Source: an uncultured bacterium (GTDB lineage Bacteria; Babelota; Babeliae; Babelales; Babelaceae). Taken from it: a DNA stretch of 64,000 nt. Location: NCBI GenBank assembly GCA_963819815.1, contig CAWFXL010000001.1, forward strand, positions 544,001-608,000. The letters run 5' to 3'. The notes under the pieces are model-generated. The model ran no database searches. It was not told where the DNA came from and saw nothing but the letters and a program-made list of their open reading frames with translations. The position numbers and the translations under genes were made by a program. Every line of letters begins with the position of its first letter. The first letter of the stretch is position 1. Below, one piece after another: positions 39,228 to 63,438 of this stretch.

Positions 39228-40826
39228 TTAGCTCGCATCAAATTGGGAAGGCAAAGGCCTCGATTCTCTCTCAGTTTTTTTATCAAAAGAGCCCCCCCGG
39301 AGAAGCTCAATCATGAAATAGGCCATAACACACCCTGATCCAATGAGAAATGCTTTTGAGGGAGTCAACCAAGGAGTTACTTTCTCAGTCTTCGCTGATG
39401 GGGTTTTCATTTGACCGGGTTTTTTTTTATCTATAGAGCTTGCATCTTGGCTTTCACCATCTGAGATACCATGTAACAGAAGTACGGCGAGCTCTTCCTT
39501 ACGTTTTTTAAGTTGAGCTTGATAGTCTTTAATCGAGGTAGAACCTGCAAAGGCAATGCCCGCTTTATCTAATCCTCTAAGCCACGCCTCTAGTTCTTCA
39601 ATCATTACCAGATCAACTCCCGCAAGGCCAATTTCTATCTGCTTAGGTAACTCTTTTTTAAGCGCAGCTACGTATGGTCGTACCATTTCTGAGTTATTCC
39701 TAAGAATAGCTATCCCTTCTTCATCAAGGTTATTATTTTGAATGCAGCTCAGAATATGCTGAGCTGCTCCATAATATTTCTTATAGTACTGCCATCTTTT
39801 AGGAGTAACGGCATCTTTAATCTTTTTAGCCTGCTCATCACCTGCTTCACTGAGCTCTTCAATAACTTCTCCTAATGCAATGCTCGGATCAAATAAATAT
39901 CTTGCAGTAGCAGGACAGCAGGAAACTTCGTCAGCAACTGCAGCAAAATCCTTTGATATCTTCGCATAGAGCATCACTTCTTTACAGGAGGTCTCACCCC
40001 CTCGCATGGCGTAGAGACTATATACTTTCTGCGCCTCCTTATCACCTTGTTTGATCTGGTCCTTCAACAAGGTACCTAAAGCCACTTCGTTACCGGCTGC
40101 TGATACCATAATCTCTGCAAAGTTTGCTTTGTAAATTGCACTCGGGAAATCTTTCCTTAGAAAGGCTCGTATCAACTCCTTAATTCCAACCTTGTTATAG
40201 ACTTCTTGCACTCTCTTAATCAGATCTCGCAATTGAGCATAGTCGTCCAAGAGTTGTATTTCAGGACTACTCGACTCAGTCCGATAAGTTTCCCACAATG
40301 CTCCGTAGGCATCCTTAATCACTCGTGCATGCCCATTGCCTTCATACAGACTCATTTCGACATAATAGCCCAAACTGTTCAAATCTATAAGGACATTAAA
40401 TGGGTTCACGTATTCGATAACAAAAGGATAATCATGTATAAGGTGAGCAGTATCCGCCAAACCGATATTACCCATCTTTCCTTCAAGATAGCGCTTACCC
40501 TCCTCTGAAGAGAAGTAAGCATCCATAATCGCCTTCTCGCGAGAATCTTGAGCATTAAGTCGACCAATAATTTCTGCAATCGTAGTCTCATTACCTTGAT
40601 CAGTAACTATAATATATTGTAGGGGGAGGGTTAAAATACCCTGAGGCAGATGCCCTTTTTTAAGGGCTTCTACAAATGCTCGCGAACCCTTCTCTGCAAC
40701 CATCTTTTTGAGATTTGCTACATCTTCATCACTGAAAAAAAATTTTCTCGCAACAGGTGGGGCATCTGATGAGAGAATCGATGAACTATAACTGAGCACA
40801 CATGCGAGTAGAAGAATGTTTTTCAT
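39228..40826 (-). CDS. Secreted hypothetical protein with C-terminal TM anchor
   Basis: Start after AAGGA; signal peptide; AFLIGSGCVMAYFMIELL near the C-terminus. Confidence 0.78.
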   Translation of the reverse strand: MKNILLLACVLSYSSSILSSDAPPVARKFFFSDEDVANLKKMVAEKGSRAFVEALKKGHLPQGILTLPLQYIIVTDQGNETTIAEIIGRLNAQDSREKAIMDAYFSSEEGKRYLEGKMGNIGLADTAHLIHDYPFVIEYVNPFNVLIDLNSLGYYVEMSLYEGNGHARVIKDAYGALWETYRTESSSPEIQLLDDYAQLRDLIKRVQEVYNKVGIKELIRAFLRKDFPSAIYKANFAEIMVSAAGNEVALGTLLKDQIKQGDKEAQKVYSLYAMRGGETSCKEVMLYAKISKDFAAVADEVSCCPATARYLFDPSIALGEVIEELSEAGDEQAKKIKDAVTPKRWQYYKKYYGAAQHILSCIQNNNLDEEGIAILRNNSEMVRPYVAALKKELPKQIEIGLAGVDLVMIEELEAWLRGLDKAGIAFAGSTSIKDYQAQLKKRKEELAVLLLHGISDGESQDASSIDKKKPGQMKTPSAKTEKVTPWLTPSKAFLIGSGCVMAYFMIELLRGGSFDKKTERESRPLPSQFDAS

Positions 40827-40933
40827 GTGATCCTTTTTGAGTAACAAGTATATACAAGTGCCATGCAAGGAGCGCCAAATACATACCATCTCGCACTAAA
40901 GCATCCGTTAACCTAACAGGCTTACCTTAATCT

Positions 40934-43900
40934 CTACCACTTAAATAAGTTCCATATCGACCGGTTGGATGAGGCGGACCAATCTTCTTCAAACAACTTA
41001 TCCACCAGTGCTTCTATGCGTTTATCAGGTGCTCCCTCAAGAAAAGCTTTAAAAGCTTCGCTAACCCTTTCTAAAGCTGTATCAGATATTGCCTTACGCA
41101 AAACTTTAAGAGCTTTGCAATCCTCATTTAAAGCTGCATCAGGTATTGCATTAAGCAAAGCCCTGAGAGCTCGCCTGTCTTCTTTTAAGGCTATCTCAGG
41201 TATTGCCTCGAGCAATGCCCTAAGAGTTTCCCTCTTTCTTAAAGGCATACAAGGTATTGCCTCAAGCAATGCTTTAAGAGCCTCCCTATCTTGTTTTAAT
41301 TCTTCACATTTGGCAATCTGTTCGTCAGCAGCTTTTTCTGCTTGTTCAAATTCCTTTTTGAGCTTCTTATGCTCATTCTTTTTCGCATTATGTTCTTTTT
41401 CTTTGTCATAGTCACCATTATTTAGAGCTACAGATGCTAATGCGCCCTCACTTTGAGCTTTCTGCCCTTCAGCTTGAGCATTAGCTACCGCTTCCTGAGC
41501 CTTCTTTCTTTCCTCAGCAATATCACGATCGGTCACTGCATTTTTTAAGAGAGCGCATGCTCCAGGCGTCAGTCTTAAAGAACCTACCCTACGTTTTTTT
41601 TGAAGTGCCTGAGCAATCTTAGATGCAATCATTTTCTTGAGAACGTCCCGCACACGATTTTGCGAAAGAAGAGACAACTCCTCTTCCTGCCTTGGAGCCG
41701 AAGCAGGCTGACCCTGTACTCTAGCTTGGGAAGAAGCCGCCCGTTGATCACCTACGTTCTGTGGAGAAAAAAGAGGCTTAATCCTGTCATTAATACTGGT
41801 TTTAATAATCTTACTACTATCAATCTCTGCTTCCCCTAAATCCTTAACCATTGGCCAGCAAGAAGCTGATAAAACCGTCCAGACCATATCATCGCTAGCA
41901 CCGCCATGGTTAAATTTATTAATTGCATCCCTATATCGTTGTACCCTTTGTGCTTTCTCAGCCACAGTATCTTGACCCGCACCTACATGCTTATCAAACT
42001 GTAGAAGCCAACCTAACGGATCCGCTGGAGGGATAGCGTCCTCTTCAAATCCTCGTCTCTTAGCTTCTTCATTTCGTCGCATTATGGTTTGAACGTGCCT
42101 TTCATGCACTTCCCGCTTATCCCTTAGGCATCTGTCCGCTACTAATGCATTGAAGTTTCTCTCACTCTCTCTCACAAGCCGATGGGCTAAAAGGCCAAGC
42201 TCATGGGATATCATGCTCTCAATAATAGTGTTGCATAATTCCCTATGCCCTTCTTCAGCAGCGAGATGAAGCGGGGTAGCCTCATCGCTTATCGATTCTA
42301 CACCGGGATACTCGCCTAATTTTGCCTCTTCCTTTTGAAGATTTATCCAGAGACGTTCTGCCAACTTAATTTCAGGAGTTTCAGCAACTCCGTTTTTACA
42401 TAATAGTTCGATGAAATCAGGAAGCTGCTCTTCAAGAGCCCACTGCATGTGCGATATTTCACGACCATCTTTGGTCGTGACTGTGTCATAGAGAATATCG
42501 ATCGGTTTTGGCTGAATTTCTTTTCTTCGATCGATTATAAGCTTCATAGCTTCTCTCTGCTTTGCACGAGCAGCTACGCATAAAATCGACTCGGCCGCAT
42601 CCCCAAACAGTGAAGTCATCACTTGTAAAGAAGTCCCTGTTGGTAAATAGGGTGCACGATCTAAGCACCAGGAAAGCATCTGACATGCTCCATGCTGAGC
42701 TGCATAATGGGTCGGCGTAAGTCCACGCTCATCTGTAGGATTAAGCAATGCTCCTGCTTTTTCCAAGCGATTTGCAAGGGCACAATCATTAGCCATAGCA
42801 GCAAAGTGCATTGGTCGTAAACCTTGCTCATTAAAATTATTCACGCCACCAGCATACGTTAGAAAAAATGCCGCTACAGCATACTGCTTATACTCATGGG
42901 CATATTGTGCAGCCGTTTTACCATCAGCATCAGTAAAAACTGGTACGACGCCTCGATCAAGAAGCTCTTGAACGATTTCTTGGCATCCTCCCATAGCTGC
43001 CGCATGCAAAGGGGATCTTTTTGAACCATCAAGTGCTTTGCAATCTGCTCCACGTTCTAGTAATAATTTTGCTATATCCCTATGTCCCTCTCGGGCGGCG
43101 ATATGCAGAGGTCTACCATGTTTGGCAGAACATATTTCTTTATCTGCTCCTCGCTCGAGAAGTAATCGCACGCAATCTAGATGCCCTGCCCTAACAGCAT
43201 GATGAAGTGCAGTTTCAATATCCTTATTTTGGCTATCTATAAAAGGAAACGTTACTTGAGATGCTGCCTGGGCACGATTTTGTTTTTCTGAATCAGGTTC
43301 AAGACCTAGCAAGATCAACTTCTCCACAATGCCAGAATCTCTTATAGCGGCATCTTGCAAATACGGAGCAATATTTTCAGGAAGAAAGCCCTCTATCTTG
43401 AAAGCATATCTCCGCGCTAACTCTTCAGACGAAACTAAAGTCAGAGCCACACGAGCAACAATCTTGTGTCGTTCTATGTGGTCAAGTAGAAGGGCAAGGA
43501 TTGCACAATTTCCTACAAATGCTGCTCGATGAAGAGCAGTATCGCCATGCTCATCCGTTTTTGAGAGGTCGATCAAAGGATGTGAAAGAAGCTGGGTCAC
43601 TTCTGTTTGCTTACCCTCTTGCACTGCTTTGCGAAGTTTACCTCCAAGAAGTTGTTTTACTTTCTCTATCTTATCCTTAAGGGCAGGCTTAAGTAATACG
43701 CGCACGCAATTGAGACGTTCCTCTCTAATTGCCTGTTGCAAAGCCGTTTCATTATTTTTATTTCTGATATTTCTACAGGAAATAGCTGTATATGAATCCA
43801 CCTGATCATGAGGCTTTTTCATCGCATCAGACTCACGAAATAAGGGAACCAAGTCATCCCAAGACAAGAGATTTCCCGTCATAGCAGATAGCTCCTTATG

Positions 43901-44245
43901 AGAAAGGTTTTTCCCTATATAGCCATAGCTCAATGTAGGCTCTTCAGGCTCATGAGGGGCCAATTTAACGTAGGTGGTCATCTTATGCCGTTCTGCATGT
44001 GCAAGAAGCAAAGCAAGCATTTCACTCTGACCAGCACGAGCGGTAGTATGTAATATAGTATTGCCACGCTCATCACAATCCAATAGGTTTACTTTGACAT
44101 CTGCAAGAAGTTGGATTACCTCATCTAAATCATCAGCTTGAACTGCTTGCCGAAGTTGAGTTGCAGCATCTACTTTTGTTCTGGACATAGCTTCGAGGGA
44201 CATCCCAATCGAAAGAAATGTTCCCCATATGAGTAGCTTTTTCAT
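40934..44245 (-). CDS. Large secreted ankyrin-repeat protein with coiled coil and C-terminal 19-aa repeats
   Basis: Signal SLEA|M; more than 10 ANK motifs; repeated xLxALLxAIP. Confidence 0.9.
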   Translation of the reverse strand: MKKLLIWGTFLSIGMSLEAMSRTKVDAATQLRQAVQADDLDEVIQLLADVKVNLLDCDERGNTILHTTARAGQSEMLALLLAHAERHKMTTYVKLAPHEPEEPTLSYGYIGKNLSHKELSAMTGNLLSWDDLVPLFRESDAMKKPHDQVDSYTAISCRNIRNKNNETALQQAIREERLNCVRVLLKPALKDKIEKVKQLLGGKLRKAVQEGKQTEVTQLLSHPLIDLSKTDEHGDTALHRAAFVGNCAILALLLDHIERHKIVARVALTLVSSEELARRYAFKIEGFLPENIAPYLQDAAIRDSGIVEKLILLGLEPDSEKQNRAQAASQVTFPFIDSQNKDIETALHHAVRAGHLDCVRLLLERGADKEICSAKHGRPLHIAAREGHRDIAKLLLERGADCKALDGSKRSPLHAAAMGGCQEIVQELLDRGVVPVFTDADGKTAAQYAHEYKQYAVAAFFLTYAGGVNNFNEQGLRPMHFAAMANDCALANRLEKAGALLNPTDERGLTPTHYAAQHGACQMLSWCLDRAPYLPTGTSLQVMTSLFGDAAESILCVAARAKQREAMKLIIDRRKEIQPKPIDILYDTVTTKDGREISHMQWALEEQLPDFIELLCKNGVAETPEIKLAERLWINLQKEEAKLGEYPGVESISDEATPLHLAAEEGHRELCNTIIESMISHELGLLAHRLVRESERNFNALVADRCLRDKREVHERHVQTIMRRNEEAKRRGFEEDAIPPADPLGWLLQFDKHVGAGQDTVAEKAQRVQRYRDAINKFNHGGASDDMVWTVLSASCWPMVKDLGEAEIDSSKIIKTSINDRIKPLFSPQNVGDQRAASSQARVQGQPASAPRQEEELSLLSQNRVRDVLKKMIASKIAQALQKKRRVGSLRLTPGACALLKNAVTDRDIAEERKKAQEAVANAQAEGQKAQSEGALASVALNNGDYDKEKEHNAKKNEHKKLKKEFEQAEKAADEQIAKCEELKQDREALKALLEAIPCMPLRKRETLRALLEAIPEIALKEDRRALRALLNAIPDAALNEDCKALKVLRKAISDTALERVSEAFKAFLEGAPDKRIEALVDKLFEEDWSASSNRSIWNLFKW
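41030..41290 (-). repeat. About five degenerate 57-bp coding repeats
   Basis: REALKALLEAIPCMPLRK / RETLRALLEAIPEIALKED / RRALRALLNAIPDAALNED / CKALKVLRKAISDTALERV / SEAFKAFLEGAPD. Confidence 0.8.
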
Positions 44246-44552
44246 AGTATTTTTTCCGTACGGCACGCTCTGGTGCGTGAAGGTAGGTGCATCTTAGTCA
44301 ACGTGTTTACCTAAGTATCGCATAGTTCATGTACCGTGTAAAATGCTTCCAAGCTCTATGAGCCGGTATATACAGATAGTGCTATAAGGAGCATGAGGCC
44401 ATTGGCAGCTTAAAATCTAATAGTCCATGCTTACCTGAGATAGACAAAAAGCCATGATCAAGTCCATGCAATACCACTTTATGCCTAGGGCAGAGTATAT
44501 ACACCAGGTATACCTCCAATCGAAAATATCCCCGCAACTCGTTGACCCTTAT

Positions 44553-45985: not shown

Positions 45986-47383
45986 ATGGAAGTATGGACT
46001 ATCATTATCATTGGAGCATCAGGAGACTTGTCCCGTCGGCGACTTATTCCCACGCTGTATGAGATGCTCAAGCATGAGAAAGATCTTTCCTTCTTATTCG
46101 TGGGCGCCGCAAAAGATGCTATCTCTATAGAGCAACTTCTTACAGAAAGCATCGCTCATAGGGATCCAGCACTTCTTGAAAAACTTATCACACGATCAAC
46201 GTATCAGACTATTGATTTTACTGATCCAGAGACTTTTTCAGAGCTCGCGAAGACAATCGTGCAGCAAGAAAAAAATGGTGATCACACTACCCAAAGACGA
46301 CTGGTGTATCTTGCCATAGATTCTCGGTGGTATAGCGGCGTAACTGCTTCTCTATGCAAGGAGGGCATCCTTCAAAAATCTGTAGTCACCCATCGTATTA
46401 TCTATGAAAAACCCTTTGGATGGGATACAGCCTCAGCCCTAAGCATCAATAATGAGGTAACTCACCTTCTTGATGAAGATCAGATTTATCGCGTCGATCA
46501 CTACATAAGCAAAGCACTCGTCACTTCCCTGCTTACTACCAGGCTCAGTAACGTATTTTTCGAGCCGATCTTGAATAGCGACTATGTTGATCAAGTACAG
46601 ATCATTCTCTCAGAAAAAGATACCCTTGAAAAAAGAGGTCTCTTTTATGATCGGTATGGCACACTAAAAGATGTTGTTCAAAATCATATGCTGCAGCTTC
46701 TTGCCTGTATCGGCATGGAGAAGCCACCCTCATTAGATCATGAATCAGTTACTGAATACAAAAAGACGGTGCTTCGCGAAATTAAAGTGATAGATGGGCT
46801 CCTTGGCCAGTTCCATGGCTATAGGGATATTCCTGGCGTTTCAGAAAACTCAACCCGAGAGACCTATGCACTTCTTCGGGCAGAGATTACAACACCTCGA
46901 TGGCACAAAGTCCCCTTCTATCTCAAGACGGGAAAAGCTCTTGATTATAAGTCCACCGAAATTCATATCGTATTTAAGCCACAAAAACTCGCAGACGTCT
47001 CGATACCTTTTGAATCAAATCGACTTATCATCCGCATCTCCCCCGACTCAGCTCTCCTTCTAAGACTCAATGCTCAAAAGATCCGAGAACCTGAATTAGT
47101 CCCGGTATCTTTAGAGTTTTGCTACCGGTGTACCTTTGGTGCACAGCCCCATTCCTATGAAACCCTTTTTCATGATGTTATGAAAGGTGACAAGAGTGTC
47201 GCGGTAACCTTTGATGAAATCGAATATGCGTGGGAATGTATTTCTCAGATAGAGAAGCTCAAGCTTCCTCTCTATAGCTACAAGGTAGGTTCATCTGGTC
47301 CTCTTGAGGCAGAAGAGTTTAGTCATAAGCATGCTATTATGTGGGCTAAAGAAACTACTCGCGCAGAACCATCGAATACCTAG
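45986..47383 (+). CDS. zwf: Glucose-6-phosphate 1-dehydrogenase
   Basis: GASGDL, EKPFG, YRVDHY, DVVQNH, VPFYLKTGK. Confidence 0.93.
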   Translation: MEVWTIIIIGASGDLSRRRLIPTLYEMLKHEKDLSFLFVGAAKDAISIEQLLTESIAHRDPALLEKLITRSTYQTIDFTDPETFSELAKTIVQQEKNGDHTTQRRLVYLAIDSRWYSGVTASLCKEGILQKSVVTHRIIYEKPFGWDTASALSINNEVTHLLDEDQIYRVDHYISKALVTSLLTTRLSNVFFEPILNSDYVDQVQIILSEKDTLEKRGLFYDRYGTLKDVVQNHMLQLLACIGMEKPPSLDHESVTEYKKTVLREIKVIDGLLGQFHGYRDIPGVSENSTRETYALLRAEITTPRWHKVPFYLKTGKALDYKSTEIHIVFKPQKLADVSIPFESNRLIIRISPDSALLLRLNAQKIREPELVPVSLEFCYRCTFGAQPHSYETLFHDVMKGDKSVAVTFDEIEYAWECISQIEKLKLPLYSYKVGSSGPLEAEEFSHKHAIMWAKETTRAEPSNT

Positions 47384-47451: not shown

Positions 47452-48129
47452 TCATGTTATGTGCATCGATCTGCGACGAATTAGCACTGGAATAAGAGCG
47501 AGAAGTGCAAGCAGTATAAATGCTATCACTATATGAGGAGAAAGAATATCCTTTGGAGATGCTATCGTTGCAAGGCTCTGCCCCGCATAAGCAAAGACAA
47601 AAGCACCCGGCAAAATGCCGATCAAGGTTGTAATCACAAAAGTTTGCAATGAGATCGGAAGCAATCCAGCAATAATATTAACAAAGGTAAAAGGCACAAG
47701 AGCTAAAAACCGCAAAGAAAGAAGGTAATAGACTCCTCGTTTTTCAAGCTCTTGCGAAAGTGCTGCAAATTGCTTTGCATAGCGCTTAGCCACAAAATCA
47801 CCCACGAGATACCGCACCATCAGAAAACAGAGCGTAGCTCCCATTGTTGCGCCAATGACAGCAAAAAGAGTTCCGTACCATATCCCAAATAAAAAACCTC
47901 CGGCAAGCGTTAAAAGCACTGAAAACGGCAATGCAAAGGCACCATCTACCACATATGCACACACGTAGAGAATTACTGCAGCCCCATATTTTCTATCAAC
48001 AAAGCCCTGCAGCCGCTGTGCATAGTCCTTGAGGGTAGCAAAACTCAGGTGTGGAGCGACAAAAAAATAGAGCGCCGCAATCATTACAAGACAGAGAACC
48101 AACAGTCCCAGTCTTAAGAACTTTTCCAT
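47452..48129 (-). CDS. TVP38/TMEM64 (VTT/DedA-like) membrane protein
   Basis: LTLAGGFLFG..GT, LRFLALVPF..VN, GILPG. Confidence 0.9.
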   Translation of the reverse strand: MEKFLRLGLLVLCLVMIAALYFFVAPHLSFATLKDYAQRLQGFVDRKYGAAVILYVCAYVVDGAFALPFSVLLTLAGGFLFGIWYGTLFAVIGATMGATLCFLMVRYLVGDFVAKRYAKQFAALSQELEKRGVYYLLSLRFLALVPFTFVNIIAGLLPISLQTFVITTLIGILPGAFVFAYAGQSLATIASPKDILSPHIVIAFILLALLALIPVLIRRRSMHIT

Positions 48130-48509
48130 ACGATTGTCCTTCCAAAAAGTATGTCTCACTGTACATAAACTTGCCTGTAAAAGCTAGACCAGAGGGCATG
48201 TCTATTAAGGTATCCTGGACGGACAGGCCACCGCATCCTAAAGGATATTAAATGCATGCAATCCTAAAAAAGAGGAGATTGTGGAAGAAAATAATGGTGA
48301 TCATTTCAACCAGCTTCAAGATCCATGAAATGATAGATCCGGGCCGCATGACCTGTAAGAGCTACTTTTCTTGAATTGATAAGGTGTAGATGATGAATTG
48401 TTGGCGTAAAGTTCACTGTCAAAGATTAGTACAATACTCTGAATTTAGCTTATTCTTGGTTTGAGTACCTATGCAATCGCACCGCGGTCAGCATAAGTTA
48501 ATCTAACTC

Positions 48510-48551
48510 AAGAAACCCCCTCGCACATGAATGCAAGGGGTTTCTTTTTTT
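48510..48551. terminator. Terminator hairpin
   Basis: AAGAAACCCC...GGGGTTTCTT followed by a T-run, beside the stop at 48561. Confidence 0.65.
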
Positions 48552-48560
48552 AATAGCTAA

Positions 48561-49064
48561 TTAAGCCTCTAGGGGATGCTTCGCTTTTCTAATCATATCT
48601 CTCGTTTTTTCATCAGCAACAAATTGAAGTTTATATTTTCTTACCAGAGAATCTTGACTCAGAAAATATGGTAGCAATAAGGCTCCATATCGCTTAGCAG
48701 CAGGAAGCTTTTCAAATTTTTTGGGTTCCACTCTTGAAGCAAAATCAAGAAGCAAAAGTCCGGTAACCGCAGTATTAAGTTCGCGGAGAGTAGGTTTGGT
48801 CTTATTGGCAACTTGTTCAGCCTGTGCAACGATTGCATCAGCCTTTCCAATGACAAATTGAGCAATTTCTTCTTTTCTTTCGGGATTTTCCTCTAGGAAG
48901 TCCGTCAGAATAATCACATTGGCAGGATGAATAGGATTAATGCCTAGTGTTGATTCAATTTGGTCAACAATACCTGCCTTATATTCGTCGTATTTCATCC
49001 CATTTAGTTGTAAAGTAGCCGCTGCTACCAGAACTAAGCTTAAGCTTATATAATATTTGTTCAT
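48561..49064 (-). CDS. Secreted hypothetical protein
   Basis: RBS GAGGAG; signal LQLNG|M. Confidence 0.75.
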   Translation of the reverse strand: MNKYYISLSLVLVAAATLQLNGMKYDEYKAGIVDQIESTLGINPIHPANVIILTDFLEENPERKEEIAQFVIGKADAIVAQAEQVANKTKPTLRELNTAVTGLLLLDFASRVEPKKFEKLPAAKRYGALLLPYFLSQDSLVRKYKLQFVADEKTRDMIRKAKHPLEA

Positions 49065-49276
49065 AGAACTCCTCTTTTTTAGTATTAAATTAGGATTAAG
49101 GGTCGATGCACTGTGCGCACCCACTATTTATTAGTATAGTCAATAGAGGTAAAAATTGTCAATATTTCTATGGTTTACCTTAATCTTATTTTCAATTTGC
49201 AAATTAAAGCATGGGGTCTTTTCTTCCGCTACTCGCGAGGTAGCCCTGCCTTGACCGGTAGATTTTAAAGGCCCAG

Positions 49277-49305
49277 TTGACATATTTAATATTTTCATAT
49301 AGAAT
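49277..49305 (+). promoter_or_regulatory. Sigma70 promoter
   Basis: TTGACA-N17-TAGAAT. Confidence 0.75.
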
Positions 49306-49377
49306 TATTTCATAAATTAAAAAAGCGTTATACCGCTTCGTCTCGACTCGCAAAAATAGTAAAAAGGAGACACCTAG

Positions 49378-51240
49378 ATGAACAAGTTACTCAGTATGCC
49401 TTTTTTGATCTTTACCGCACCTCTTATAGGTATGGATAGGGCCCATTCGCTCAATCTACATGAGATCAAGCCGCACCACAAGATTCAATTTGATGATAAG
49501 GGGCATTTTAAAGAAGACAAAGATCTGGCACTCTTCATGGAGCAGGCAGTCAATGAAGGAGCTACACCACGAAGTTTTGATGGTATAAAAAGAGTAAAAC
49601 CGCTTTCAAAAGAGCTTAAAGAAGCAAAATATGCCTCAGAGCAGTTGTGGTTAATCGAATGCATGAATGGCTATTCATTCATACTGAAAGAGATAAAGCA
49701 TAATAAAGAACCTTTAGAAGAAATAAAGCGCCTTGAACGTGCCCGAACTGCTCATAGGCTACAACCCTACGTCTTTCCACGTTCGCAGGATAATCTGCAA
49801 CTGGTATTTCCAAGTCGCTATATTACGTATACATACCGCAAGCAGCAACACATTATGGCACTCATGCCAAAGGCAAAGGGAAAGAGACTCCAATCACTCA
49901 TGGAGGATTTTGAGCGTAGCCCAGATAATCAGCAGGTACTGAAACTCGCCTGTAAAGTCTATTATGATCTTGGTGCTACCATGGCAAAATTCTATAAGAG
50001 CTTTGGTACACTGGATAAGACTATAAGCCACAAGGACTTCCATCAGGGCAACATTTTCTACGATCGAAATGGTCTGATCAGCTTAATCGACAATGAAAGA
50101 ATGGCACAAACCCTTGAAGAGGCTGATGATATTAGCAGTGATCTTGGGTATTTATTTGTAACCTCACCCTTTATTCTCGAATGGGCACGTGGCGGATTTC
50201 TAAAAAACTTCCCGGCCAAAAAATGGTATCAAATTGTGCTACCTAGTTTTATAATCGGGTTCATGCGAGCGTATGAAAAGCACGAACGTGCAGACGTTTT
50301 TGCTAGACTAGTTGAGCTCATATGTGCTTGGGAAAGTAAAGTCAACGAAAACGATTCACGGCCAATCCGAGGCATTATACGTGAGGTACTCAAGAATATG
50401 GAAACTCAATTGAAAGAACGTAAATCTGAGGCCCATATTGCCGCTGGCAATCCTGATTTAACGGCTCTTGTTGAGATTCTCATCAAGGAAAAAACGAGAG
50501 CGTTATTCGAAAAGGACATATTTGGCAACACGCCTTTACATGAAGCCGCCTACTTTGGATGCTCTGATTCAGTTGCCCTTCTAGTAGCAGCCGGCTGCGA
50601 TGTATCTGCTCGTAATGATAAGCAGGAAACTCCCCTATTTAAAGCTGAGTTTGCGAACCATCGTGATATTGCCAAACTTCTAAAAAAGTCTGCAGCAACA
50701 ATCATTGAGGTAGTTAAAGGAGACATTCTGAAACAAAATGTGGATGTCATCGTAAATGCTGCAAATCCACAGCTCGCTGCTGGTGGTGGTATCTGCGAAG
50801 CCATTTTTGATGCTGCAGGTAAAGAACAACTAAAAAGTGGCTGTCATGGGTATCCACTTATACATGGAGTCCGATGTCCCGCAGGGGATGCACGTATTAC
50901 CGATAGCTTCAAATTAGAAGCTCAGGGCGTTCAAAAGATAGTACATGCTGTCGGACCCGATGCACGGATTATCAAAGATCATCACCAACAACGCGCGCTT
51001 CTTGAGATGGCGTATACCAAGAGTTTAGAGCTCGCTGCCAAAGGTGGATTTACATCTATTGCATTTCCCTTTATAAGCAGCGGTATCTACCAAGTAGATC
51101 ATCAGCTTGCAGCCAAGGCAGCAATTACCGCAGCTCGAAAGTTTGTGTCTCATCATGCTACAAGCTTGAGAGTAATACGTTTTGTCTTGCGAAATACAAG
51201 CGATTATGAACTCTTTAAGGAGCTTTTAGCTGACGAATAG
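49378..51240 (+). CDS. Secreted kinase-like + ankyrin + macrodomain protein
   Basis: FILKE, HKDFHQGNIF, LIDNE; GNTPLHEAA; KGDI..VNAANPQL..GGGICEAI, HAVGP, AFPFISSGIY. Confidence 0.85.
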   Translation: MNKLLSMPFLIFTAPLIGMDRAHSLNLHEIKPHHKIQFDDKGHFKEDKDLALFMEQAVNEGATPRSFDGIKRVKPLSKELKEAKYASEQLWLIECMNGYSFILKEIKHNKEPLEEIKRLERARTAHRLQPYVFPRSQDNLQLVFPSRYITYTYRKQQHIMALMPKAKGKRLQSLMEDFERSPDNQQVLKLACKVYYDLGATMAKFYKSFGTLDKTISHKDFHQGNIFYDRNGLISLIDNERMAQTLEEADDISSDLGYLFVTSPFILEWARGGFLKNFPAKKWYQIVLPSFIIGFMRAYEKHERADVFARLVELICAWESKVNENDSRPIRGIIREVLKNMETQLKERKSEAHIAAGNPDLTALVEILIKEKTRALFEKDIFGNTPLHEAAYFGCSDSVALLVAAGCDVSARNDKQETPLFKAEFANHRDIAKLLKKSAATIIEVVKGDILKQNVDVIVNAANPQLAAGGGICEAIFDAAGKEQLKSGCHGYPLIHGVRCPAGDARITDSFKLEAQGVQKIVHAVGPDARIIKDHHQQRALLEMAYTKSLELAAKGGFTSIAFPFISSGIYQVDHQLAAKAAITAARKFVSHHATSLRVIRFVLRNTSDYELFKELLADE

Positions 51241-51543
51241 CAACTGATGCTTGCGTAAGAAAATTAACTAGTTTCAGCATGTGCCTGAGACCTACACGTG
51301 CTGAAACCCCACATAATCTCTTTTCCTGTAGCTGATCGGCATATGTCTTAATGGAAAGCTTAAATTCATGAATATACAACAGATACATACACCAATCATT
51401 ACTGCCACAGTAGCAAGTTGAGCGAATCTCAAAAATATCCTAAACCTAGGTCTTTCTGTCTCACTTGACAAGCCTCATCTAAAGGAGCCCCCATAAAAAC
51501 TCACTTCTGTAAACCTCCTCCAAGGTGGTACTTAGTGATGCTT

Positions 51544-51571
51544 TTGACACTCTGCATACTTCCTATAGAAT
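51544..51571 (+). promoter_or_regulatory. Sigma70 promoter
   Basis: TTGACA-N16-TAGAAT. Confidence 0.65.
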
Positions 51572-51643
51572 TTGAATCAGATGATATCGCTCTCCTTTAA
51601 TCATATCAGGTGGAGCTCTAACATCTACTAAAAGGAATCATCT

Positions 51644-52996
51644 ATGAACAAGATACTCGGTATAGCTCTAATCCTCCTACCTGCACCTCTTTTTTGTATG
51701 AATAGATCATACGTACTCGAACAACATGAAATCGTACCGCTTCCGCAGATTCAATTTGATGATGAAGGTCATTTTAAAGAAGATAAAGATCTGGCACTTT
51801 TTCTAGTACAAGCCATCCAAGCAGGGGCCATTCCAAAAGACTTTGATGGAATAAAGAGAATAAAGCGTCTGTCAAAAGAGCTCCTAGAAGCACGATATGC
51901 CTCAGAACAATTGTGGTTAGTAGACTGCATGAACGATACTTCATTTATACTTAAAGAAATAAAGGAAGAAAAGGAACCGCTTGAAGAAATTAAACGGCTT
52001 GAACAAGCGCGCACAGACTCTCGACTTCAGCCCTATGTCGGGCCATGCTCACAGGAAAATCTGCAATTGATTTTTCCGGCCAGTTGTATTTCTTACACCC
52101 AATGCCAACGAAAACATATCATGACACTCCTGCCCAAAGCACAGGGGCTACTCTTGCAATCACTCATGGAAGATTTTGAAAAAAGTCCAAATGACCCACA
52201 GGTGTGTAAATGCGCGTGCAAAGCTTACTATGATCTTGGGGCTGCAATGGCAAAGTTCTATAAGAACTTTGGCACTCTTGATGCAACCATAAGTCACAAA
52301 GATCTTCATCAGGGAAATATTTTCTATGATGAGAGCGATGGTCTTATAAGTTTGATCGACAATGAGCGAATAGTGCAAACTCTTGAATGCACAGAAGATA
52401 TAAGCTGCGATCTCGGGTTTTTATTTGTTACATCACCCTTTATCTTAGCTTGGACCTATGGAGATTTTCTTCAACGCTTCCCTGCGAAAAAATGGTATGA
52501 AATCGTGCTGCCCAGTTTTGTTATCGGTTTTATGCGAACCTATGAAAATCGGGAACGAGCGGAGGTGTTCAGCAAGTTGAGTACACTCTTATGCAGGTTC
52601 AATACCACGGTCAATGCTGGTGACTCAACCTCAATAAGAAGTATCATAGAAGAGATACTCAAAGACATGTACCTACGGTTCCAAGAGGGAAAAGCAGCAG
52701 TACATATAGCGGCAAGCAATCCTGATCTAACTGCTCTTGTAAAGATTCTCATCCAAGAAAAAACAAGAGGATTAGGTAAAAAAGATAGCGCGGGCAATAC
52801 GCCTTTACACGAAGCAGCCTACTTTGGTTGCACTGATTCCGTTGCACTTTTAATAGCAGCAGGATGTGATGTATGGGCATGTAATGATAATCAAGAAACT
52901 CCTCTATTCAAGGCGGAGTTTGCGAACCATCGTGAAATTGTCAAGCTTATAAAAAGGTCCGCAACTCAAACCAGCTCATCTGAAAATCAACAGTAA
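51644..52996 (+). CDS. Secreted kinase-like + ankyrin protein (paralog without macrodomain)
   Basis: Colinear with aa 1-440 of the upstream gene; HKDLHQGN, LIDNE, GNTPLHEAA. Confidence 0.85.
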   Translation: MNKILGIALILLPAPLFCMNRSYVLEQHEIVPLPQIQFDDEGHFKEDKDLALFLVQAIQAGAIPKDFDGIKRIKRLSKELLEARYASEQLWLVDCMNDTSFILKEIKEEKEPLEEIKRLEQARTDSRLQPYVGPCSQENLQLIFPASCISYTQCQRKHIMTLLPKAQGLLLQSLMEDFEKSPNDPQVCKCACKAYYDLGAAMAKFYKNFGTLDATISHKDLHQGNIFYDESDGLISLIDNERIVQTLECTEDISCDLGFLFVTSPFILAWTYGDFLQRFPAKKWYEIVLPSFVIGFMRTYENRERAEVFSKLSTLLCRFNTTVNAGDSTSIRSIIEEILKDMYLRFQEGKAAVHIAASNPDLTALVKILIQEKTRGLGKKDSAGNTPLHEAAYFGCTDSVALLIAAGCDVWACNDNQETPLFKAEFANHREIVKLIKRSATQTSSSENQQ

Positions 52997-53196
52997 TGGC
53001 ACCGTATGTTAAAAGTCAGGGTAATTTTTAGGAGTTTTTGGTCAAAAGTCAATCATTCTCCGAAATACGATACCCCCCTATAAGAATATCCTCCTCACAA
53101 TCAACCACTCACAGCTTCGATTATGCACAACCAACAAAACTCTTACGTTTTACCCTCCAAATCAGGTAAAGTACTCAAAAGAAGGAGTACATTCCC

Positions 53197-54117
53197 ATGA
53201 AAATCGGCGTCATCGGATTAGGCAAGATGGGTGGACCTATTGCTAAGAAACTCAACGCAATGGATAGCGAGCTTGTAGTTTTTGATGCCAATCCAGCAGT
53301 GCTCCAAGAATATGCTAATGAAGGGTTTGTGGTCGCTCAGAGTATTTCCGACCTCAGTGCTCGTTCAACAATTATTTGGGTTATGGTCCCACAAAGCGTC
53401 CTTGATTCTGTTCTTGATCACCTTTGTGCTTGCACAGAACCAGAAACCGTCATCATTGATGGAGGAAACAGTTTTTATAAAGATAGCATACGTAGAGCTC
53501 TCGATCTTGAAAAAAAGCATCTTGCTTTCCTAGATTGCGGAACTTCAGGAGGCCTTTGGGGAGCTGACCATGGATTTAGTTTAACTATTGGTGGGAAAAA
53601 AGAGGTCTTTCAAAAGGTTGAGCCCGTCTTTAAGCTGCTTGCTGCCTCTTCTACCTCCTATGCTTTAGTTGGCCCAGCTGGAGCAGGACACTATGTAAAA
53701 ATGATTCACAATGGTATTGAGTATGCACTCCTTGAATCCTATGCCGAAGGATTTAATATGCTGCGCAATGGTGCGTATAAAGATCTCGACCTTGCTGCCA
53801 TTAGTACCACCTGGATGTCAGGCGCTGTCATTCGCTCCTGGCTGCTTGAGCTTACTCGCGAGATACTCGTACACGACCAACGACTTGATACTATTAAAGG
53901 ATCAGTGGGAGAGCATGGCATGGGACGATGGACCGTTGAAGAAGCTGAAAAGCTTTCACTTCCTGTTCCCGTCATTAAAGAATCGGTAGAGGTACGAGAA
54001 TGGTCTCGACAAACAGGTGGAGATTTTAGAACGAAGCTTATTGCCTGTGTACGCCATGCCATGGGTGGCCACAAAATCCTCCAGGAACATTGCGAAGGCT
54101 GCCAGGAGGTTCAGTAA
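53197..54117 (+). CDS. gnd: 6-phosphogluconate dehydrogenase (decarboxylating, short form)
   Basis: GLGKMG, IIDGGNS, DCGTSGG, GHYVKMIHNGIEY. Confidence 0.95.
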   Translation: MKIGVIGLGKMGGPIAKKLNAMDSELVVFDANPAVLQEYANEGFVVAQSISDLSARSTIIWVMVPQSVLDSVLDHLCACTEPETVIIDGGNSFYKDSIRRALDLEKKHLAFLDCGTSGGLWGADHGFSLTIGGKKEVFQKVEPVFKLLAASSTSYALVGPAGAGHYVKMIHNGIEYALLESYAEGFNMLRNGAYKDLDLAAISTTWMSGAVIRSWLLELTREILVHDQRLDTIKGSVGEHGMGRWTVEEAEKLSLPVPVIKESVEVREWSRQTGGDFRTKLIACVRHAMGGHKILQEHCEGCQEVQ

Positions 54118-58634: not shown

Positions 58635-58779
58635 TGACATGAAATTGCCCTTTTCCCAATTTCATGTCAAATTTTTCATCCACTTATCTTGACATGAAAT
58701 TGGATTTTTCCGAGTTTCACGTCAAACCCATCACCTATTTTTCTTGACGTGAAATTGACTTTTTCCGCATTTCATGTCA
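58635..58779. repeat. Three 35-bp palindromic units at exact 55-bp period
   Basis: Units start at 58635, 58690 and 58745; consensus TGACRTGAAATTG-N9-nnnTTTCAYGTCA; a degenerate extra half-unit ends at 58616. Confidence 0.92.
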
Positions 58780-58783
58780 AACT
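58755..58783 (+). promoter_or_regulatory. Promoter embedded in third palindrome
   Basis: TTGACT(58755-60)-N17-CAAACT(58778-83) with TG at 58775-76. Confidence 0.55.
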
Positions 58784-58811
58784 ATATCTCATAAGAAAGA
58801 AAGGAAATGAT

Positions 58812-60251
58812 ATGTCACTTCCCTTTATTGGACGCAAAAAAGAGCTCGCCACTCTTGAGAAACTCTTAAAAAAGAGTGTTGCAAGCCTGGTAGTTGTCAA
58901 AGGCAGGCGCAGGATAGGGAAAAGCCGCCTCATCCAAGAATTTGCAAAAAAATATACCTTCTACCAATTTAGTGGGCTGCCCCTCACTCCAGAAACTTCT
59001 ATTCAATCTCAGCTAGATGCCTTTGCATTACAGTTAAGCGAACAAACAGGTCTTCCAAAAATTCAGGCCAATGATTGGAGTAAACTTTTTCATTTGCTAG
59101 CGGACAAAATTAAAACAGGAAGAATTATTGTCCTTTTTGATGAAATTTCTTGGATGGGATCAAAAGATCCAGACTTTCTCGGAAAATTTAAAAATGCTTG
59201 GGACATCTATTTCAAGAAGAACAATAAACTCATCTTCTTTCTCTGCGGTTCAGTATCATCATGGATTGATAAAAATATTTTAGCGAGCACAGGGTTCGTA
59301 GGAAGAATTTCCTTTAGACTTACCTTAGATGAACTCCCTTTAAATGAGTGTAACGAATTTTGGACACACAAAGATAGCCTCATTTCACCCTATGAAAAAT
59401 TCAAAATACTTTCTGTTACCGGAGGCATTCCACGCTATCTGGAGGAAATAGATACCTCACTTCCAGGCAATGAAAATATCAAAGATCTGTGCTTCTCACC
59501 AGGAGGTCTTCTTGTACATGAATTTCACGATATATTCTCAGATATATTTGGTCATCGGACTGGAATCTATAAAAGAATTGTTGAAGCTCTCGCAAATGGA
59601 CCCTTAGATGCAAAAAAAATATGTAAGCTCTTAGGAGTCACCTATACAGGAACCCAAAATGAATACTTAGATGATCTTGTCGCGTCTGGTTTTGTAAAGA
59701 GAGACTACACATGGCACTTCTCTACCGGGAAAATCTCGCGATTCAGCCAATTTCGATTAAGCGATAACTACGTACGCTTTTATCTTAAATACATTGATCC
59801 TGTTTTACCAAAAATTGAAAATCATACTTTTGATTTTGCCTCTCTCAGCGCACTTCCCGGATGGGAAACAATTAAAGGCTACCAATTTGAGAATCTCGTT
59901 TTAAAAAACAGGCGCTTCTTGAGAGAGTGTTTACACCTCAACCCTAATGATATTATCGCAGATAATCCCTTTTTCCAGCGAACAAGTGAGGAAGTCCCTG
60001 GTTGTCAAATCGATTACCTTATTCAAACTAAATTTAGAGTACTTTATGTCTGCGAGTTTAAATTTAGTAGTCAACCGGTTGGCACGAGGGTTATACGGGA
60101 AATGCAAGAAAAGATACGGAGACTATCATACCCTAAAGGATTTTCTATTCTGCCAGTTCTCGTACACGTTAACGGCGTCGACGACGAGGTCCTTGGCAGT
60201 GGATTTTTTGCAAACGTTATCGATTTTTCGCAAGCTCTTACCCAGGGTTAG
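58812..60251 (+). CDS. AAA+/STAND-like ATPase (COG1672 type) with probable wHTH and C-terminal PD-(D/E)XK domain
   Basis: FIGRKKEL, Walker A GRRRIGKS, Walker B VLFDE, LCGS, TGGIPRYL, QIDY...VCEFK; ATG 58812 after AAGGA. Confidence 0.88.
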   Translation: MSLPFIGRKKELATLEKLLKKSVASLVVVKGRRRIGKSRLIQEFAKKYTFYQFSGLPLTPETSIQSQLDAFALQLSEQTGLPKIQANDWSKLFHLLADKIKTGRIIVLFDEISWMGSKDPDFLGKFKNAWDIYFKKNNKLIFFLCGSVSSWIDKNILASTGFVGRISFRLTLDELPLNECNEFWTHKDSLISPYEKFKILSVTGGIPRYLEEIDTSLPGNENIKDLCFSPGGLLVHEFHDIFSDIFGHRTGIYKRIVEALANGPLDAKKICKLLGVTYTGTQNEYLDDLVASGFVKRDYTWHFSTGKISRFSQFRLSDNYVRFYLKYIDPVLPKIENHTFDFASLSALPGWETIKGYQFENLVLKNRRFLRECLHLNPNDIIADNPFFQRTSEEVPGCQIDYLIQTKFRVLYVCEFKFSSQPVGTRVIREMQEKIRRLSYPKGFSILPVLVHVNGVDDEVLGSGFFANVIDFSQALTQG

Positions 60252-62064: not shown

Positions 62065-62820
62065 TTATGCTTTGACAGTACCCTTTTGTTCGATACTGTT
62101 TTGAGCGGCCACGTAATTTTTTTCAACCTGTTCCCAGTTTACCACATGCCACCAGGCATCACTATACTCAGCACGCCTATTTTGGTATTTCAAGTAATAA
62201 GCATGCTCCCATACATCAAGACCTAACAGCGGTATCAACCCTTGTGTAATAGGTGTATCTTGATTTGAGGTGGTCACAATTTTAAGGCCCCCATCTTTTG
62301 TAAGCACAAGCCATGCCCAACCGCTTCCAAATACACTCAGTGCAGCTTTATTAAACTGCTCCTTAAAGCTTTCAAGGCTACCAAAAGTTTTTTCAATAAG
62401 ATCTTTTATTAGGCCAACAGGTTGCTGTGCTGTAGGAGTCATACAAAGCCAGAAGAAGGAATGGTTATAATGGCCACCCCCATTATCACGAACTGCAGTA
62501 TGAATATATTCATAGTCTGGGAGTTCAGCTAAATGCGTAAGAAGGTATTCAAGAGATTTATTGCGAACCTCAGGAAAACTTTTTATTGCATCATTGAGCT
62601 TATCAACATATGCCTGATGATGCTTCGTATAATGAATCGTCATCGTCTCAGCATCAATATATGGTTCTAATGCATTAAATGCATAGGGCAAGGGAGGTAG
62701 CGTATAGGGATACGTTCCTTCAACATGGGCAACATGATTTTTATACATATAGGCACCACCAATAACAACCACTACCACGAGTCCCACTCCAAGGAGAATA
62801 GCAAGATTTCGATTCAACAT
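62065..62820 (-). CDS. Mn/Fe superoxide dismutase with N-terminal TM/signal anchor
   Basis: LAILLGVGLVVVVVIGGAYMY, then [22 protein letters not shown]. Confidence 0.92.
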   Translation of the reverse strand: MLNRNLAILLGVGLVVVVVIGGAYMYKNHVAHVEGTYPYTLPPLPYAFNALEPYIDAETMTIHYTKHHQAYVDKLNDAIKSFPEVRNKSLEYLLTHLAELPDYEYIHTAVRDNGGGHYNHSFFWLCMTPTAQQPVGLIKDLIEKTFGSLESFKEQFNKAALSVFGSGWAWLVLTKDGGLKIVTTSNQDTPITQGLIPLLGLDVWEHAYYLKYQNRRAEYSDAWWHVVNWEQVEKNYVAAQNSIEQKGTVKA

Positions 62821-62823
62821 AAC

Positions 62824-63438
62824 TCACCCACCATGTTTTTTATATAGTTCTTCAACGTAACCCCAATTCACCACATTCCACCAGGCTTGGATATAATCTA
62901 CACGACGATTTTGGTATTTGAGATAGTACGCATGCTCCCAAACGTCTAAACCAAGAATCGGCATATTCCCCTCTGACCAAGGCGTATCTTGATTAGCAGA
63001 AGAGGTAATTTCTAAGTTACCTGCCTTATTAAGAACCAGCCAGGCCCAACCACTACCGAAGCGGCTTTTTGCCGCAGTATTAAACTGTTCTTTAAATGCT
63101 TCAAAGGAGGTAAACTGCTTCTTAATTGCGTCAACTACAGTTCCTTGAGGAGTACCACCACCCTTGACCATCCAATCCCAAAAGAGTGTATGATTATAGT
63201 TTCCACCACCATTGTTTCTCACAGCAGTACGAATATCTTCAGGTATCTGCGTGAGGTTACCCAGTAACTCATCAAGTGTTTTACCCTGAAGTTCTGGATG
63301 ACCAGTAAGCGCTGCATTGAGGTTATCAACATACCCCTGGTGATGCTTCGTGTAATGGATCTCCATAGTACGCGCATCAATATAGGGCTCTAGGGCATCA
63401 TAGCTATATGGTAATGGGGGAAGCTTAAACATACTCAT
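62824..63438 (-). CDS. sodA: Superoxide dismutase, probably Mn-type, cytoplasmic
   Basis: [30 protein letters not shown]. Confidence 0.93.

Follow-up and report, generated by a model that had tools for sequence, protein, structure and literature searches.

We analyzed a 64,000-nucleotide (nt) stretch of contig CAWFXL010000001.1 from an uncultured bacterium (hereafter the window), in which two tandem paralogous genes, here called gene 1 and gene 2, each encode a signal-like hydrophobic N terminus, a protein-kinase-like domain, and three ankyrin repeats (Table 1). Gene 1 continues into a C-terminal macrodomain that gene 2 lacks. On balance, we read the two products as Sec-exported, host-directed effectors, with a kinase in both and, in the gene 1 product, a mono-ADP-ribose eraser in addition. 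The kinase-like domain is a member of a large family with conserved catalytic residues, and the macrodomain carries a Cys in place of the classic catalytic Asp. The architecture had been pointed out in an earlier note that was made from the DNA sequence without database searches, and the outcome of its claims is given below with the results that bear on them.

Kinase-like fold and conserved active site

The prediction of an atypical kinase-like domain in the earlier note was confirmed at the level of the fold. An AlphaFold2 (AF2) model of gene 1 residues 1 to 345, built with 15 homologues, was confident, with a predicted local distance difference test (pLDDT) score of 91.2 and a predicted template modeling (pTM) score of 0.87; residues 1 to 21 were its sole low-confidence part (pLDDT < 50). 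When the model was compared with the PDB by Foldseek, all listed matches (ranks 1 to 49) were kinases with a probability of 1.00, and at least 500 matches had E ≤ 0.001. The matched structures included NEK7, PKG, GCN2, APH(2''), macrolide 2'-phosphotransferase, Legionella LegK4, and the N-acetylhexosamine kinase NahK. The listed matches among viral models were also mostly kinases, and the top TM-score (0.46) belonged to a giant-virus APH-domain protein. Look-alikes of the domain found with a language model all carried Kdo, APH, RIO1, or Pkinase families.

A search with a profile of the kinase part only retrieved at least 290 representative clusters (50% identity) at E ≤ 0.001, of which 141 reached E ≤ 1e-10 and 52 reached E ≤ 1e-30. 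From these, 98 representatives were used for a Pfam census and for residue conservation. Lys104 was conserved in 86 of 88 and Glu115 in 82 of 89 of the representatives aligned at these positions. Across all 98, conservation was 89 for His218, 97 for Asp220, 93 for Asn225, 98 for Asp238, and 94 for Asp255. Both window copies keep Lys104, Glu115, Asp220, Asn225, and Asp238, and also His218 and Asp255. Since the catalytic residues are conserved across the family and retained in both window copies, the domain is probably an active phosphotransferase and not a pseudokinase.

Lys104 lies in strand 100 to 105 of the model and Glu115 in helix 112 to 123; from their order in the secondary structure, these would be the beta3 and alphaC positions. 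Asp255, the next conserved Asp, follows Asp238 at an interval of only 17 residues, and there is no long activation segment. The window proteins have an extra N-terminal subdomain (residues 22 to 70). In its HxDxxxxN loop, its I-D-N-E metal site, and the close spacing of the two Asp residues, the domain is nearer to the APH/choline-kinase branch and to minimal atypical kinases than to eukaryotic-type kinases. The domain would be expected to work like the APH/choline-kinase branch without being a member by curated Pfam cut-offs. The fold and the conserved residues do not reveal the class of substrate.

Sequence searches placed the domain near known kinase families and inside none of them. Sub-threshold Pfam matches at approximately residues 180 to 243 were to APH (E = 0.011), ABC1 (E = 0.065), and Choline_kinase (E = 0.0045). 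Scores stayed below the Pfam cut-offs, with 15.9 versus 23.2 bits for APH in gene 1 and 16.8 versus 29 bits for Choline_kinase in gene 2. There was no Pfam match to Pkinase in the window proteins and no NCBIfam match on their kinase part, and a PDB sequence search with the kinase part, as a single protein or as a profile (best E = 0.21), found nothing significant. Weak Pfam matches in the 98 relatives were to APH (44 proteins), EcKL (21), TCAD9 (21), ABC1 (10), and Choline_kinase (7); the best E value for APH or Choline_kinase was 1.2e-6. OspG_kinase was weakly matched by three relatives and Pkinase by one (E = 0.0014).

Ankyrin repeats were fused to the kinase-like domain in 20 of the 98 representatives. 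Other partners occurred in single members and comprised alpha-amylase (two), an Exo_endo_phos nuclease/phosphatase, and beta-propellers. A scan of a genome collection with the kinase profile gave two loci from 326 pattern matches. One, on an uncultured-bacterium chromosome, was 48% identical, had a different neighborhood, and lacked the ankyrin part; the other was a distant match in Armatimonadota (22% identity). A third paralogue, P0008 (402 amino acids [aa]), is encoded outside the window on the same contig, which has 1,604,641 bases and carries the database copies of gene 1 and gene 2. It is 54 to 59% identical to gene 1 and has a C-terminal membrane-like segment (approximately residues 373 to 392) in place of the ankyrin repeats. 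No further members of the kinase-like family were found in the 64-kb window.

A Cys-type macrodomain in gene 1

Pfam Macro (PF01661) matched gene 1 only, at residues 459 to 582 (E = 4.7e-25; 88.3 bits versus a cut-off of 22), and the match covered profile positions 1 to 118 of 118. This bears out the earlier description of a full macrodomain in gene 1 and a macro-less sibling. The sequence motifs quoted at that time are likewise all present in the translations: ILKEIK, SHKDFHQGN or SHKDLHQGN, and LIDNE in the kinase-like part, and VVKGDI, NAAN, GGG, HAVGP, and IAFPFISSGIY in the macrodomain. The top solved relative was E. coli YmdB (5cb3/1spv), with a full-length alignment at E = 1.5e-26; other solved relatives were Deinococcus DR_2288, OiMacroD, MACROD1/2, and PARP14 macro 1. 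YmdB and the gene 1 macrodomain have in common NAAN, GGG, HxVGP, and the (S/T)G(I/V)Y loop. The YmdB segment GGGVDGAIH aligns to GGGICEAIF, which puts Cys473 in the place of the Asp and Phe477 in the place of the His, and the classic dyad is absent. The label "MacroD-type" in the earlier note therefore holds for the sequence likeness, NAAN, and GGG, and does not extend to the classic Asp/His dyad. The NCBIfam equivalog of YmdB type (NF001664) was not reached (best score 125.6 bits versus a cut-off of 200). Relative to wild-type YmdB, the PDB entries 5cb5 and 5cms have other residues at three sites: the final Asn of NAAN, the dyad Asp, and the loop Tyr.

The Cys is typical of the closest relatives. 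Of 56 short proteins related to the macrodomain at E ≤ 1e-20, 32 were aligned (the best 25 and seven further down). Cys occupied the Asp position in 30 of the 32, and the His position was Phe in 29 and Tyr in one. A hydrophobic N-terminal extension was present in 26 of the 32, including all 25 closest. The gene 1 macrodomain thus belongs to a clade of stand-alone, secreted-looking macrodomains. P0352 to P0376, all encoded outside the window, are stand-alone macrodomains of 199 to 275 aa with 43 to 66% identity to that of gene 1, and all have both a hydrophobic N-terminal extension and Cys for the classic Asp; they are likely a family of secreted ADP-ribose erasers. Cys and Phe also occupy the dyad positions in the macrodomain of P0002, a homologue of gene 1 that is described below.

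The classic catalytic motif, xDx(4)H, follows the glycines (Rack et al., PMC7729036). According to the same source, the Cys variant is conserved in Togaviridae, whose macrodomains are hydrolases, is found in 241 of 1,706 microbiome sequences, and is proposed to be catalytic in the alphavirus hydrolases. An Asp-to-Ala mutant of OiMacroD is still active, and the active Af1521 naturally has Ala (Zapata-Perez et al., PMC5413906); loss of the dyad is therefore no argument that the gene 1 macrodomain is dead. The gene 1 macrodomain combines an intact ADP-ribose pocket with a conserved Cys, and we somewhat favor removal of mono-ADP-ribose as its activity.

The gene pair and the origin of the fusion

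Gene 1 and gene 2 are intact open reading frames (ORFs) whose products are identical at 302 of 441 residues (68%; BLASTP, 1 gap). The alignment ends at residue 440/441, at KKSAA(T) in gene 1 and KRSAT(Q) in gene 2, exactly where the earlier note had placed the end of homology; beyond it, gene 1 has 180 more residues and gene 2 has 9 before its stop. The count of about three ankyrin repeats also stood. Pfam Ank_2 matched gene 1 at 353 to 439 (E = 1.1e-11) and gene 2 at 354 to 437 (E = 1.2e-22), and a full-length gene 1 model (overall pLDDT 84.6) contained three helix pairs at 351 to 370, 386 to 404, and 419 to 439, with pLDDT mostly above 90. The number of nonsynonymous substitutions per nonsynonymous site (dN) between the genes was approximately 0.21, and the synonymous counterpart (dS) was at least 1 and saturated (1.0 to 1.9 overall). 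For the kinase part alone dS is meaningless, and the usable statement is that dN is much below dS, which is consistent with retention of both copies under selection.

Each gene had been credited with a TTGACA/TAGAAT promoter of its own, and both sites were recovered (11 of 12 consensus positions each) as the top-scoring plus-strand sites within 48100 to 53300. The number of promoter-like sites in this region (13) was no greater than in shuffled sequences (12.3 ± 3.7), so the evidence is the placement of the two sites and not their count. AAGGA was read as the ribosome-binding site (RBS) ahead of the gene 2 ATG. Judging from these consensus matches, both genes look expressed. The regions 5' of the two genes match poorly except for the promoter hexamers and the RBS, which indicates that the duplication is old. 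The GC content of the pair resembles that of the remaining window (window GC, 0.39 to 0.45).

Table 1. Coordinates of the gene pair and its features in the window (residue numbers refer to gene 1 unless stated)
Feature	Position	Strand	Description and basis
Gene 1	49378..51240	+	620 aa; signal, kinase-like domain, three ankyrin repeats, macrodomain; ORF, Pfam, homologues, full-length model
Gene 2	51644..52996	+	450 aa; signal, kinase-like domain, three ankyrin repeats, without macrodomain; ORF, Pfam, paralogy
Promoter-like site, gene 1	49277..49305	+	TTGACA-17 nt-TAGAAT; 11/12 consensus; ATG 73 nt downstream
Promoter-like site, gene 2	51544..51571	+	TTGACA-16 nt-TAGAAT; 11/12 consensus; ATG 73 nt downstream
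RBS AAGGAG, gene 1	49364..49369	+	Read from sequence; 8 nt 5' of ATG
Hydrophobic signal-like segment, gene 1	49378..49440	+	Residues 1-21; likely cleavage near Gly18/Met19
Protein-kinase-like domain, gene 1	49441..50412	+	Residues 22-345; AF2, Foldseek, residue conservation
Lys104 codon	49687-49689	+	Conserved residue, kinase-like domain
Glu115 codon	49720-49722	+	Conserved residue, kinase-like domain
His218-x-Asp220-x4-Asn225	50029-50052	+	Catalytic loop, kinase-like domain
Asp238-Asn-Glu240	50089-50097	+	Metal site, kinase-like domain
Three ankyrin repeats, gene 1	50413..50697	+	Residues 346-440; Pfam Ank_2 353-439, model
Cys-type MacroD-like macrodomain, gene 1	50698..51237	+	Residues 441-620; Pfam, YmdB alignment, relatives
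Macrodomain motifs	Cys473, 50794-50796	+	NAAN 460-463, GGG 469-471, Cys473, Phe477, GIY 569-571; translation, YmdB alignment

Misassembly, which the earlier note had named as a possible source of the fusion, is contradicted by P0002. This protein of 629 aa, encoded on a separate 4,450-base contig, is 62% identical to gene 1 over 100% of its length and shares its domain order and junction; because an independent contig carries the identical architecture, the fusion is real. It is also rare. When 160 family proteins (15 close homologues and 145 listed representatives) were searched by phmmer with the window macrodomain, only gene 1 and P0002 had one. No kinase-ankyrin-macrodomain protein was found described in open-access literature and bioRxiv, in line with the earlier statement that this architecture was not recognized as a described one, and neither were Dependentiae effectors of the kinase or ADP-ribose type. 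A preprint from 2026 that deals with kinase-like families has TCAD9 among its known profiles, and no mention of ankyrin or macrodomain partners was found in it (10.64898/2026.09.18.752743).

For the kinase-ankyrin part, neighbor joining over 22 sequences and 435 columns with 100 bootstrap replicates placed gene 1 and gene 2 as sisters with a bootstrap of 100; P0002 joined this pair at 46 and P0008 next at 80. Identity to P0002 was 63% for gene 1 and 53% for gene 2, and the greater distance of gene 2 indicates that it evolves faster. No macrodomain remnant was found 3' of gene 2. On the distance tree, the preferred reading of gene 2 is a duplicate from which the macrodomain was lost, and not the ancestral form. 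The simplest and most likely history would be a fusion before the split from P0002, followed by tandem duplication and then by loss of the 3' macro part from gene 2. The macrodomain would have come from the secreted stand-alone family and would have been joined to the kinase-ankyrin core before the duplication.

N-terminal segment and export

The products of gene 1 and gene 2 both begin with MNK and 12 to 14 hydrophobic residues, and the stretch closes with APLIG/M (gene 1) or APLFC/M (gene 2); this is a sequence pattern, and an uncleaved anchor is possible. A charged stretch followed by a hydrophobic run of at least 11 residues was present in 15 of 15 distinct close homologues, in which P-L-x-(A/G) ahead of Met or Glu was frequent, and 14 of the 15 had no second membrane-like segment. 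The signal peptide proposed in the earlier note thus stands as a conserved hydrophobic N terminus and a putative signal peptide. P0001, the database copy of gene 1, has 602 aa and starts at Met19, so that the signal-like segment (49378 to 49431) is lost. The longer form, starting at ATG 49378, is favored over Met19 because of the placement of the RBS and the N termini of all homologues.

By a crude measure, 27 of the 50 window ORFs of at least 150 aa have a hydrophobic N terminus, which fits the richness in signal peptides reported for cultured Dependentiae. In Babela massiliensis, signal peptides are reported on 79 of 126 ankyrin proteins, which are proposed to reach the amoeba cytoplasm, and type II was the only secretion system detected (PMC4378268). 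In Chromulinavorax destructans, signal peptides are reported on 44% of all proteins and on 78% of the ankyrin-repeat proteins, of which the genome has 98 copies (PMC6561590). By analogy, the products of gene 1 and gene 2 may be exported to a host.

Proposed mode of action and alternative interpretations

In the mode of action that we propose, the signal segment would take the protein across the inner membrane, and release into the host would occur via a type II system or vesicles, as proposed for the ankyrin proteins of the phylum. In the host cytosol, residues 22 to 345 would act as an ATP-dependent phosphotransferase with a Brenner-type HxDxxxxN loop and an IDNE metal site. The ankyrin repeats would dock the enzyme on a host protein that serves as substrate or localizer. 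The gene 1 macrodomain would bind mono-ADP-ribose and most likely strip it from host proteins, with Cys473 at the classic Asp position. The analogy with viral macrodomains that counter host PARPs, drawn in the earlier note, is plausible. Phosphorylation of the docked host protein or one nearby is, at slightly less than even odds, the likeliest activity of the kinase-like domain, ahead of a lipid or metabolite substrate, and noncanonical chemistry by this domain would be a surprise.

Several points weigh against these proposals. The Dependentiae placement of the source organism comes from one marker protein, at 62 to 68% identity, and TM6 genomes are reported to have 27 to 41% GC (PMC4776705), which puts the window at the top of that range or above it. 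A family scan of 41 neighboring ORFs recognized no ADP-ribosyltransferase. TM-scores against solved kinases were low (0.30 to 0.38); with matches to kinases only, this means that the fold class is clear and that a close solved relative is absent. The weak matches to APH, EcKL, and choline kinase among the relatives do not favor a protein substrate. In the macrodomain, GVYG of YmdB aligns to GIYQ, with Gln572 for Gly, and the full-length model is poor: pLDDT drops below 50 over residues 463 to 500, a stretch that includes the catalytic loop, in a part covered by only two sequences. The presence of a macrodomain in only 2 of the 160 family proteins implies that it is dispensable for the core function. 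Sec export by itself would lead to the periplasm only, and delivery to a host is extrapolated from the literature on other Dependentiae.

The relation between the two activities can be read in more than one way. The earlier note had suggested an effector in which phosphorylation is coupled to ADP-ribose sensing; any functional coupling is hypothetical, and the two activities may simply be co-delivered. Because most kinase relatives have no macrodomain and the closest macrodomains have no kinase, the fusion is more likely a device for co-delivery or co-localization than an obligatory two-step enzyme. It is a long shot that the kinase and the Cys-type macrodomain act sequentially on one ADP-ribosylated host substrate as a two-step editor of ADP-ribose signaling. 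In one version, the group phosphorylated by the kinase may be the ADP-ribose itself or the residue from which it has just been removed; in another, the conserved Cys may covalently trap ADP-ribosylated targets for the kinase. Either would make this a new kinase-like family whose chemistry is not necessarily ordinary Ser/Thr phosphorylation.

The alternative nearest to our proposal concerns the substrate. The kinase-like domain could phosphorylate lipids or small molecules rather than proteins, as a kinase of the APH, choline-kinase, or ecdysteroid-kinase type; its substrate could be, for example, a host phosphoinositide, choline or ethanolamine, or another metabolite, with the ankyrin repeats serving only to localize it. 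We regard this as possible if rather doubtful. The succession of H218-x-D220-x4-N225 and I-D238-N-E240 is a Brenner-type pattern, Pfam matches in this part of the window proteins are confined to APH, ABC1, and Choline_kinase, and the same families with EcKL far outnumber Pkinase and OspG_kinase among the weak matches of the relatives. The 17 residues between Asp238 and Asp255, which leave no room for a long activation segment, and the APH-domain protein with the top viral TM-score fit as well. However, every such Pfam match in the window proteins lies below the curated cut-off, eukaryotic-type protein kinases head the Foldseek list, and ankyrin repeats are protein-binding modules that recur in a fifth of the representatives. 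Several protein kinases that are effectors or count as atypical (OspG/NleH, RIO, and YihE-type) likewise do without an activation segment. A second alternative concerns the macrodomain, which could be a reader, as in the sensing option of the earlier note; by binding host proteins that carry mono-ADP-ribose, it would recruit the kinase to them. Replacement of the classic dyad by Cys473 and Phe477, Gln572 after GIY, and fusion to an enzyme that depends on targeting would all suit recruitment. We nevertheless consider it unlikely, given the intact NAAN and GGG that position ADP-ribose and the Cys in 30 of 32 relatives, most of which are stand-alone secreted proteins with nothing to recruit. MacroD-like enzymes without the Asp stay active (PMC5413906), and a catalytic role has been proposed for the Cys variant of the alphavirus hydrolases (PMC7729036).

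The remaining alternatives would keep the proteins with the bacterium. They could act in its own envelope or periplasm, or be anchored by an uncleaved N-terminal helix, and not be delivered to a host. A Sec-type N terminus by itself indeed predicts nothing beyond the periplasm, hydrophobic N termini are unspecific in this window, and P0008 has a membrane-like segment at its C terminus. This is improbable in our view, since a kinase whose ATP/Mg site is conserved in full requires ATP, which the periplasm does not contain, and since the targets of ankyrin repeats and macrodomains are of eukaryotic type. The signal-peptide ankyrin proteins of cultured Dependentiae have, moreover, been read as secreted into the host (PMC4378268; PMC6561590). 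Least credible by far is an anti-phage or conflict module in which the kinase-like domain and macrodomain form an NAD/ADP-ribose defense. TCAD9, the Pfam family weakly matched by 21 of the 98 relatives, is named from conflict systems, the pair has weak PADLOC matches (PDC-M72A and "Ankyrin"), and a PDC-S27-like ATPase is encoded 6 kb away. We rejected this reading because the PADLOC matches, at E values of 1e-6 to 1e-10, are limited to the ankyrin part (residues 322 to 459). Both proteins also have predicted export signals, the neighbors are housekeeping pentose-phosphate genes, and there is no operon partner, since each gene has its own promoter.

Relation to known systems and significance

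With the APH, choline-kinase, and EcKL families (PF01636, PF01633, and PF02958), the kinase-like domain shares the bilobal fold, the beta3 Lys, the alphaC Glu, the HxDxxxxN loop, and the I-D-x-E Asp. The window proteins differ from them in scoring below all cut-offs, in TM-scores of 0.30 to 0.46, and in their additional parts, namely, the signal-like N terminus, the subdomain at residues 22 to 70, and the C-terminal ankyrin repeats. Unlike YmdB, OiMacroD, and human MacroD1/2, the gene 1 macrodomain is the C-terminal part of a multidomain protein that is predicted to be exported. Like the nsP3 macrodomains of alphaviruses, it has Cys at the classic Asp position after the triple glycine, an equivalence drawn via the classic Asp and not from a residue-by-residue alignment; unlike them, it is bacterial and fused to a kinase-ankyrin core.

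Macrodomain effectors are known from an intracellular bacterium of amoebae. Legionella Larg1 (Lpg0081) and MavL strip ADP-ribose from host proteins or ubiquitin (PMC10989772; PMC11251166). Their macrodomains are PARG-like or "unique" and have Asp/Glu in the catalytic loops; the proteins are Dot/Icm substrates and are partnered with a bacterial ADP-ribosyltransferase or with SidE/LnaB. The gene 1 macrodomain, in contrast, is of the MacroD/YmdB type rather than the PARG type and has the Cys, and it comes with apparently Sec-dependent export, a kinase fusion, and no recognized transferase among the 41 ORFs. A parallel for the overall setting is with Babela and Chromulinavorax, which are reported to have many ankyrin proteins with signal peptides, a small genome, and a proposed Sec plus type II route; the passages on these repeats in the published accounts describe no kinase-like or macrodomain partner (PMC4378268; PMC6561590). 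What is new here is the architecture and the clade of secreted-looking Cys-type macrodomains. The parts come from known superfamilies, and no new mechanism is forced by the data.

Dependentiae are widespread parasites of protists, and to our knowledge their host-manipulation proteins are almost entirely unstudied. Uncharacterized kinase-like families of other intracellular bacteria have repeatedly shown unexpected chemistry. With at least 290 clusters that lack a passing curated model or a solved structure, a catalytically intact-looking family now joins the likely effectors of Dependentiae. Discussion of the Cys variant has so far centered on alphaviruses; among the macrodomains of a secreted-looking bacterial clade it is the norm, and this offers a tractable bacterial system in which to ask what the macrodomain Cys does. 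It also suggests that ADP-ribosylation is a defense of protist hosts that bacterial parasites need to erase.

Source organism and genomic neighborhood

The lysyl-tRNA synthetase (LysRS) encoded in the window was used as a marker. Among 120 listed matches, eight carried an organism name, and all eight were Candidatus Dependentiae, Babeliales, or Babeliaceae, with 62 to 68% identity. Matches outside these eight were closer, with identity of up to 94%. On this marker, the source organism is probably an amoeba-parasitic member of Dependentiae/Babeliales. Housekeeping genes in the window were those for LysRS, RecJ, and cytidylate kinase together with zwf-like and gnd-like genes; many other products are uncharacterized, and three are further ankyrin or secreted-looking proteins.

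The kinase pair is flanked by pentose-phosphate genes. The 465-aa ORF at 45986 to 47383 (+) is, as we take it from its sequence, a glucose-6-phosphate dehydrogenase, and a gnd-like 6-phosphogluconate dehydrogenase lies at 53197 to 54117 (+; NCBIfam E = 1.2e-99). A VTT/DedA membrane protein (47452 to 48159, −) and a secreted-looking protein of 187 aa (48561 to 49124, −) adjoin the pair. The segment from 47452 to 52996 looks like an insertion into a housekeeping pentose-phosphate cluster.

A 1,110-aa ankyrin protein is encoded at 40934 to 44266 (−). It has a hydrophobic N terminus and large N- and C-terminal parts without a family match, and it is followed by an exported-looking protein of 553 aa at 39228 to 40889 (−); neither belongs to the kinase-like family. 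The PDC-S27-like protein mentioned above is an ATPase_2/AAA protein of 500 aa at 58749 to 60251 (+), and its match to this PADLOC candidate defense family has E = 4.6e-83. Adjacent genes for Fe/Mn superoxide dismutases lie at 62065 to 62820 (−) and 62824 to 63438 (−). The first has an extra, strongly hydrophobic N terminus, and this points to one copy that is exported or anchored and another that is cytoplasmic. Two further tandem pairs of secreted-looking proteins are encoded at 5941 to 7356 and 7444 to 8856 (+), the first member with a weak thioredoxin match, and at 9335 to 10330 and 10341 to 11219 (+). The ORF at 11494 to 12441 (+) encodes a stand-alone LigD primase-polymerase domain (E = 9.3e-90), with the ligase and nuclease domains absent from the ORF.

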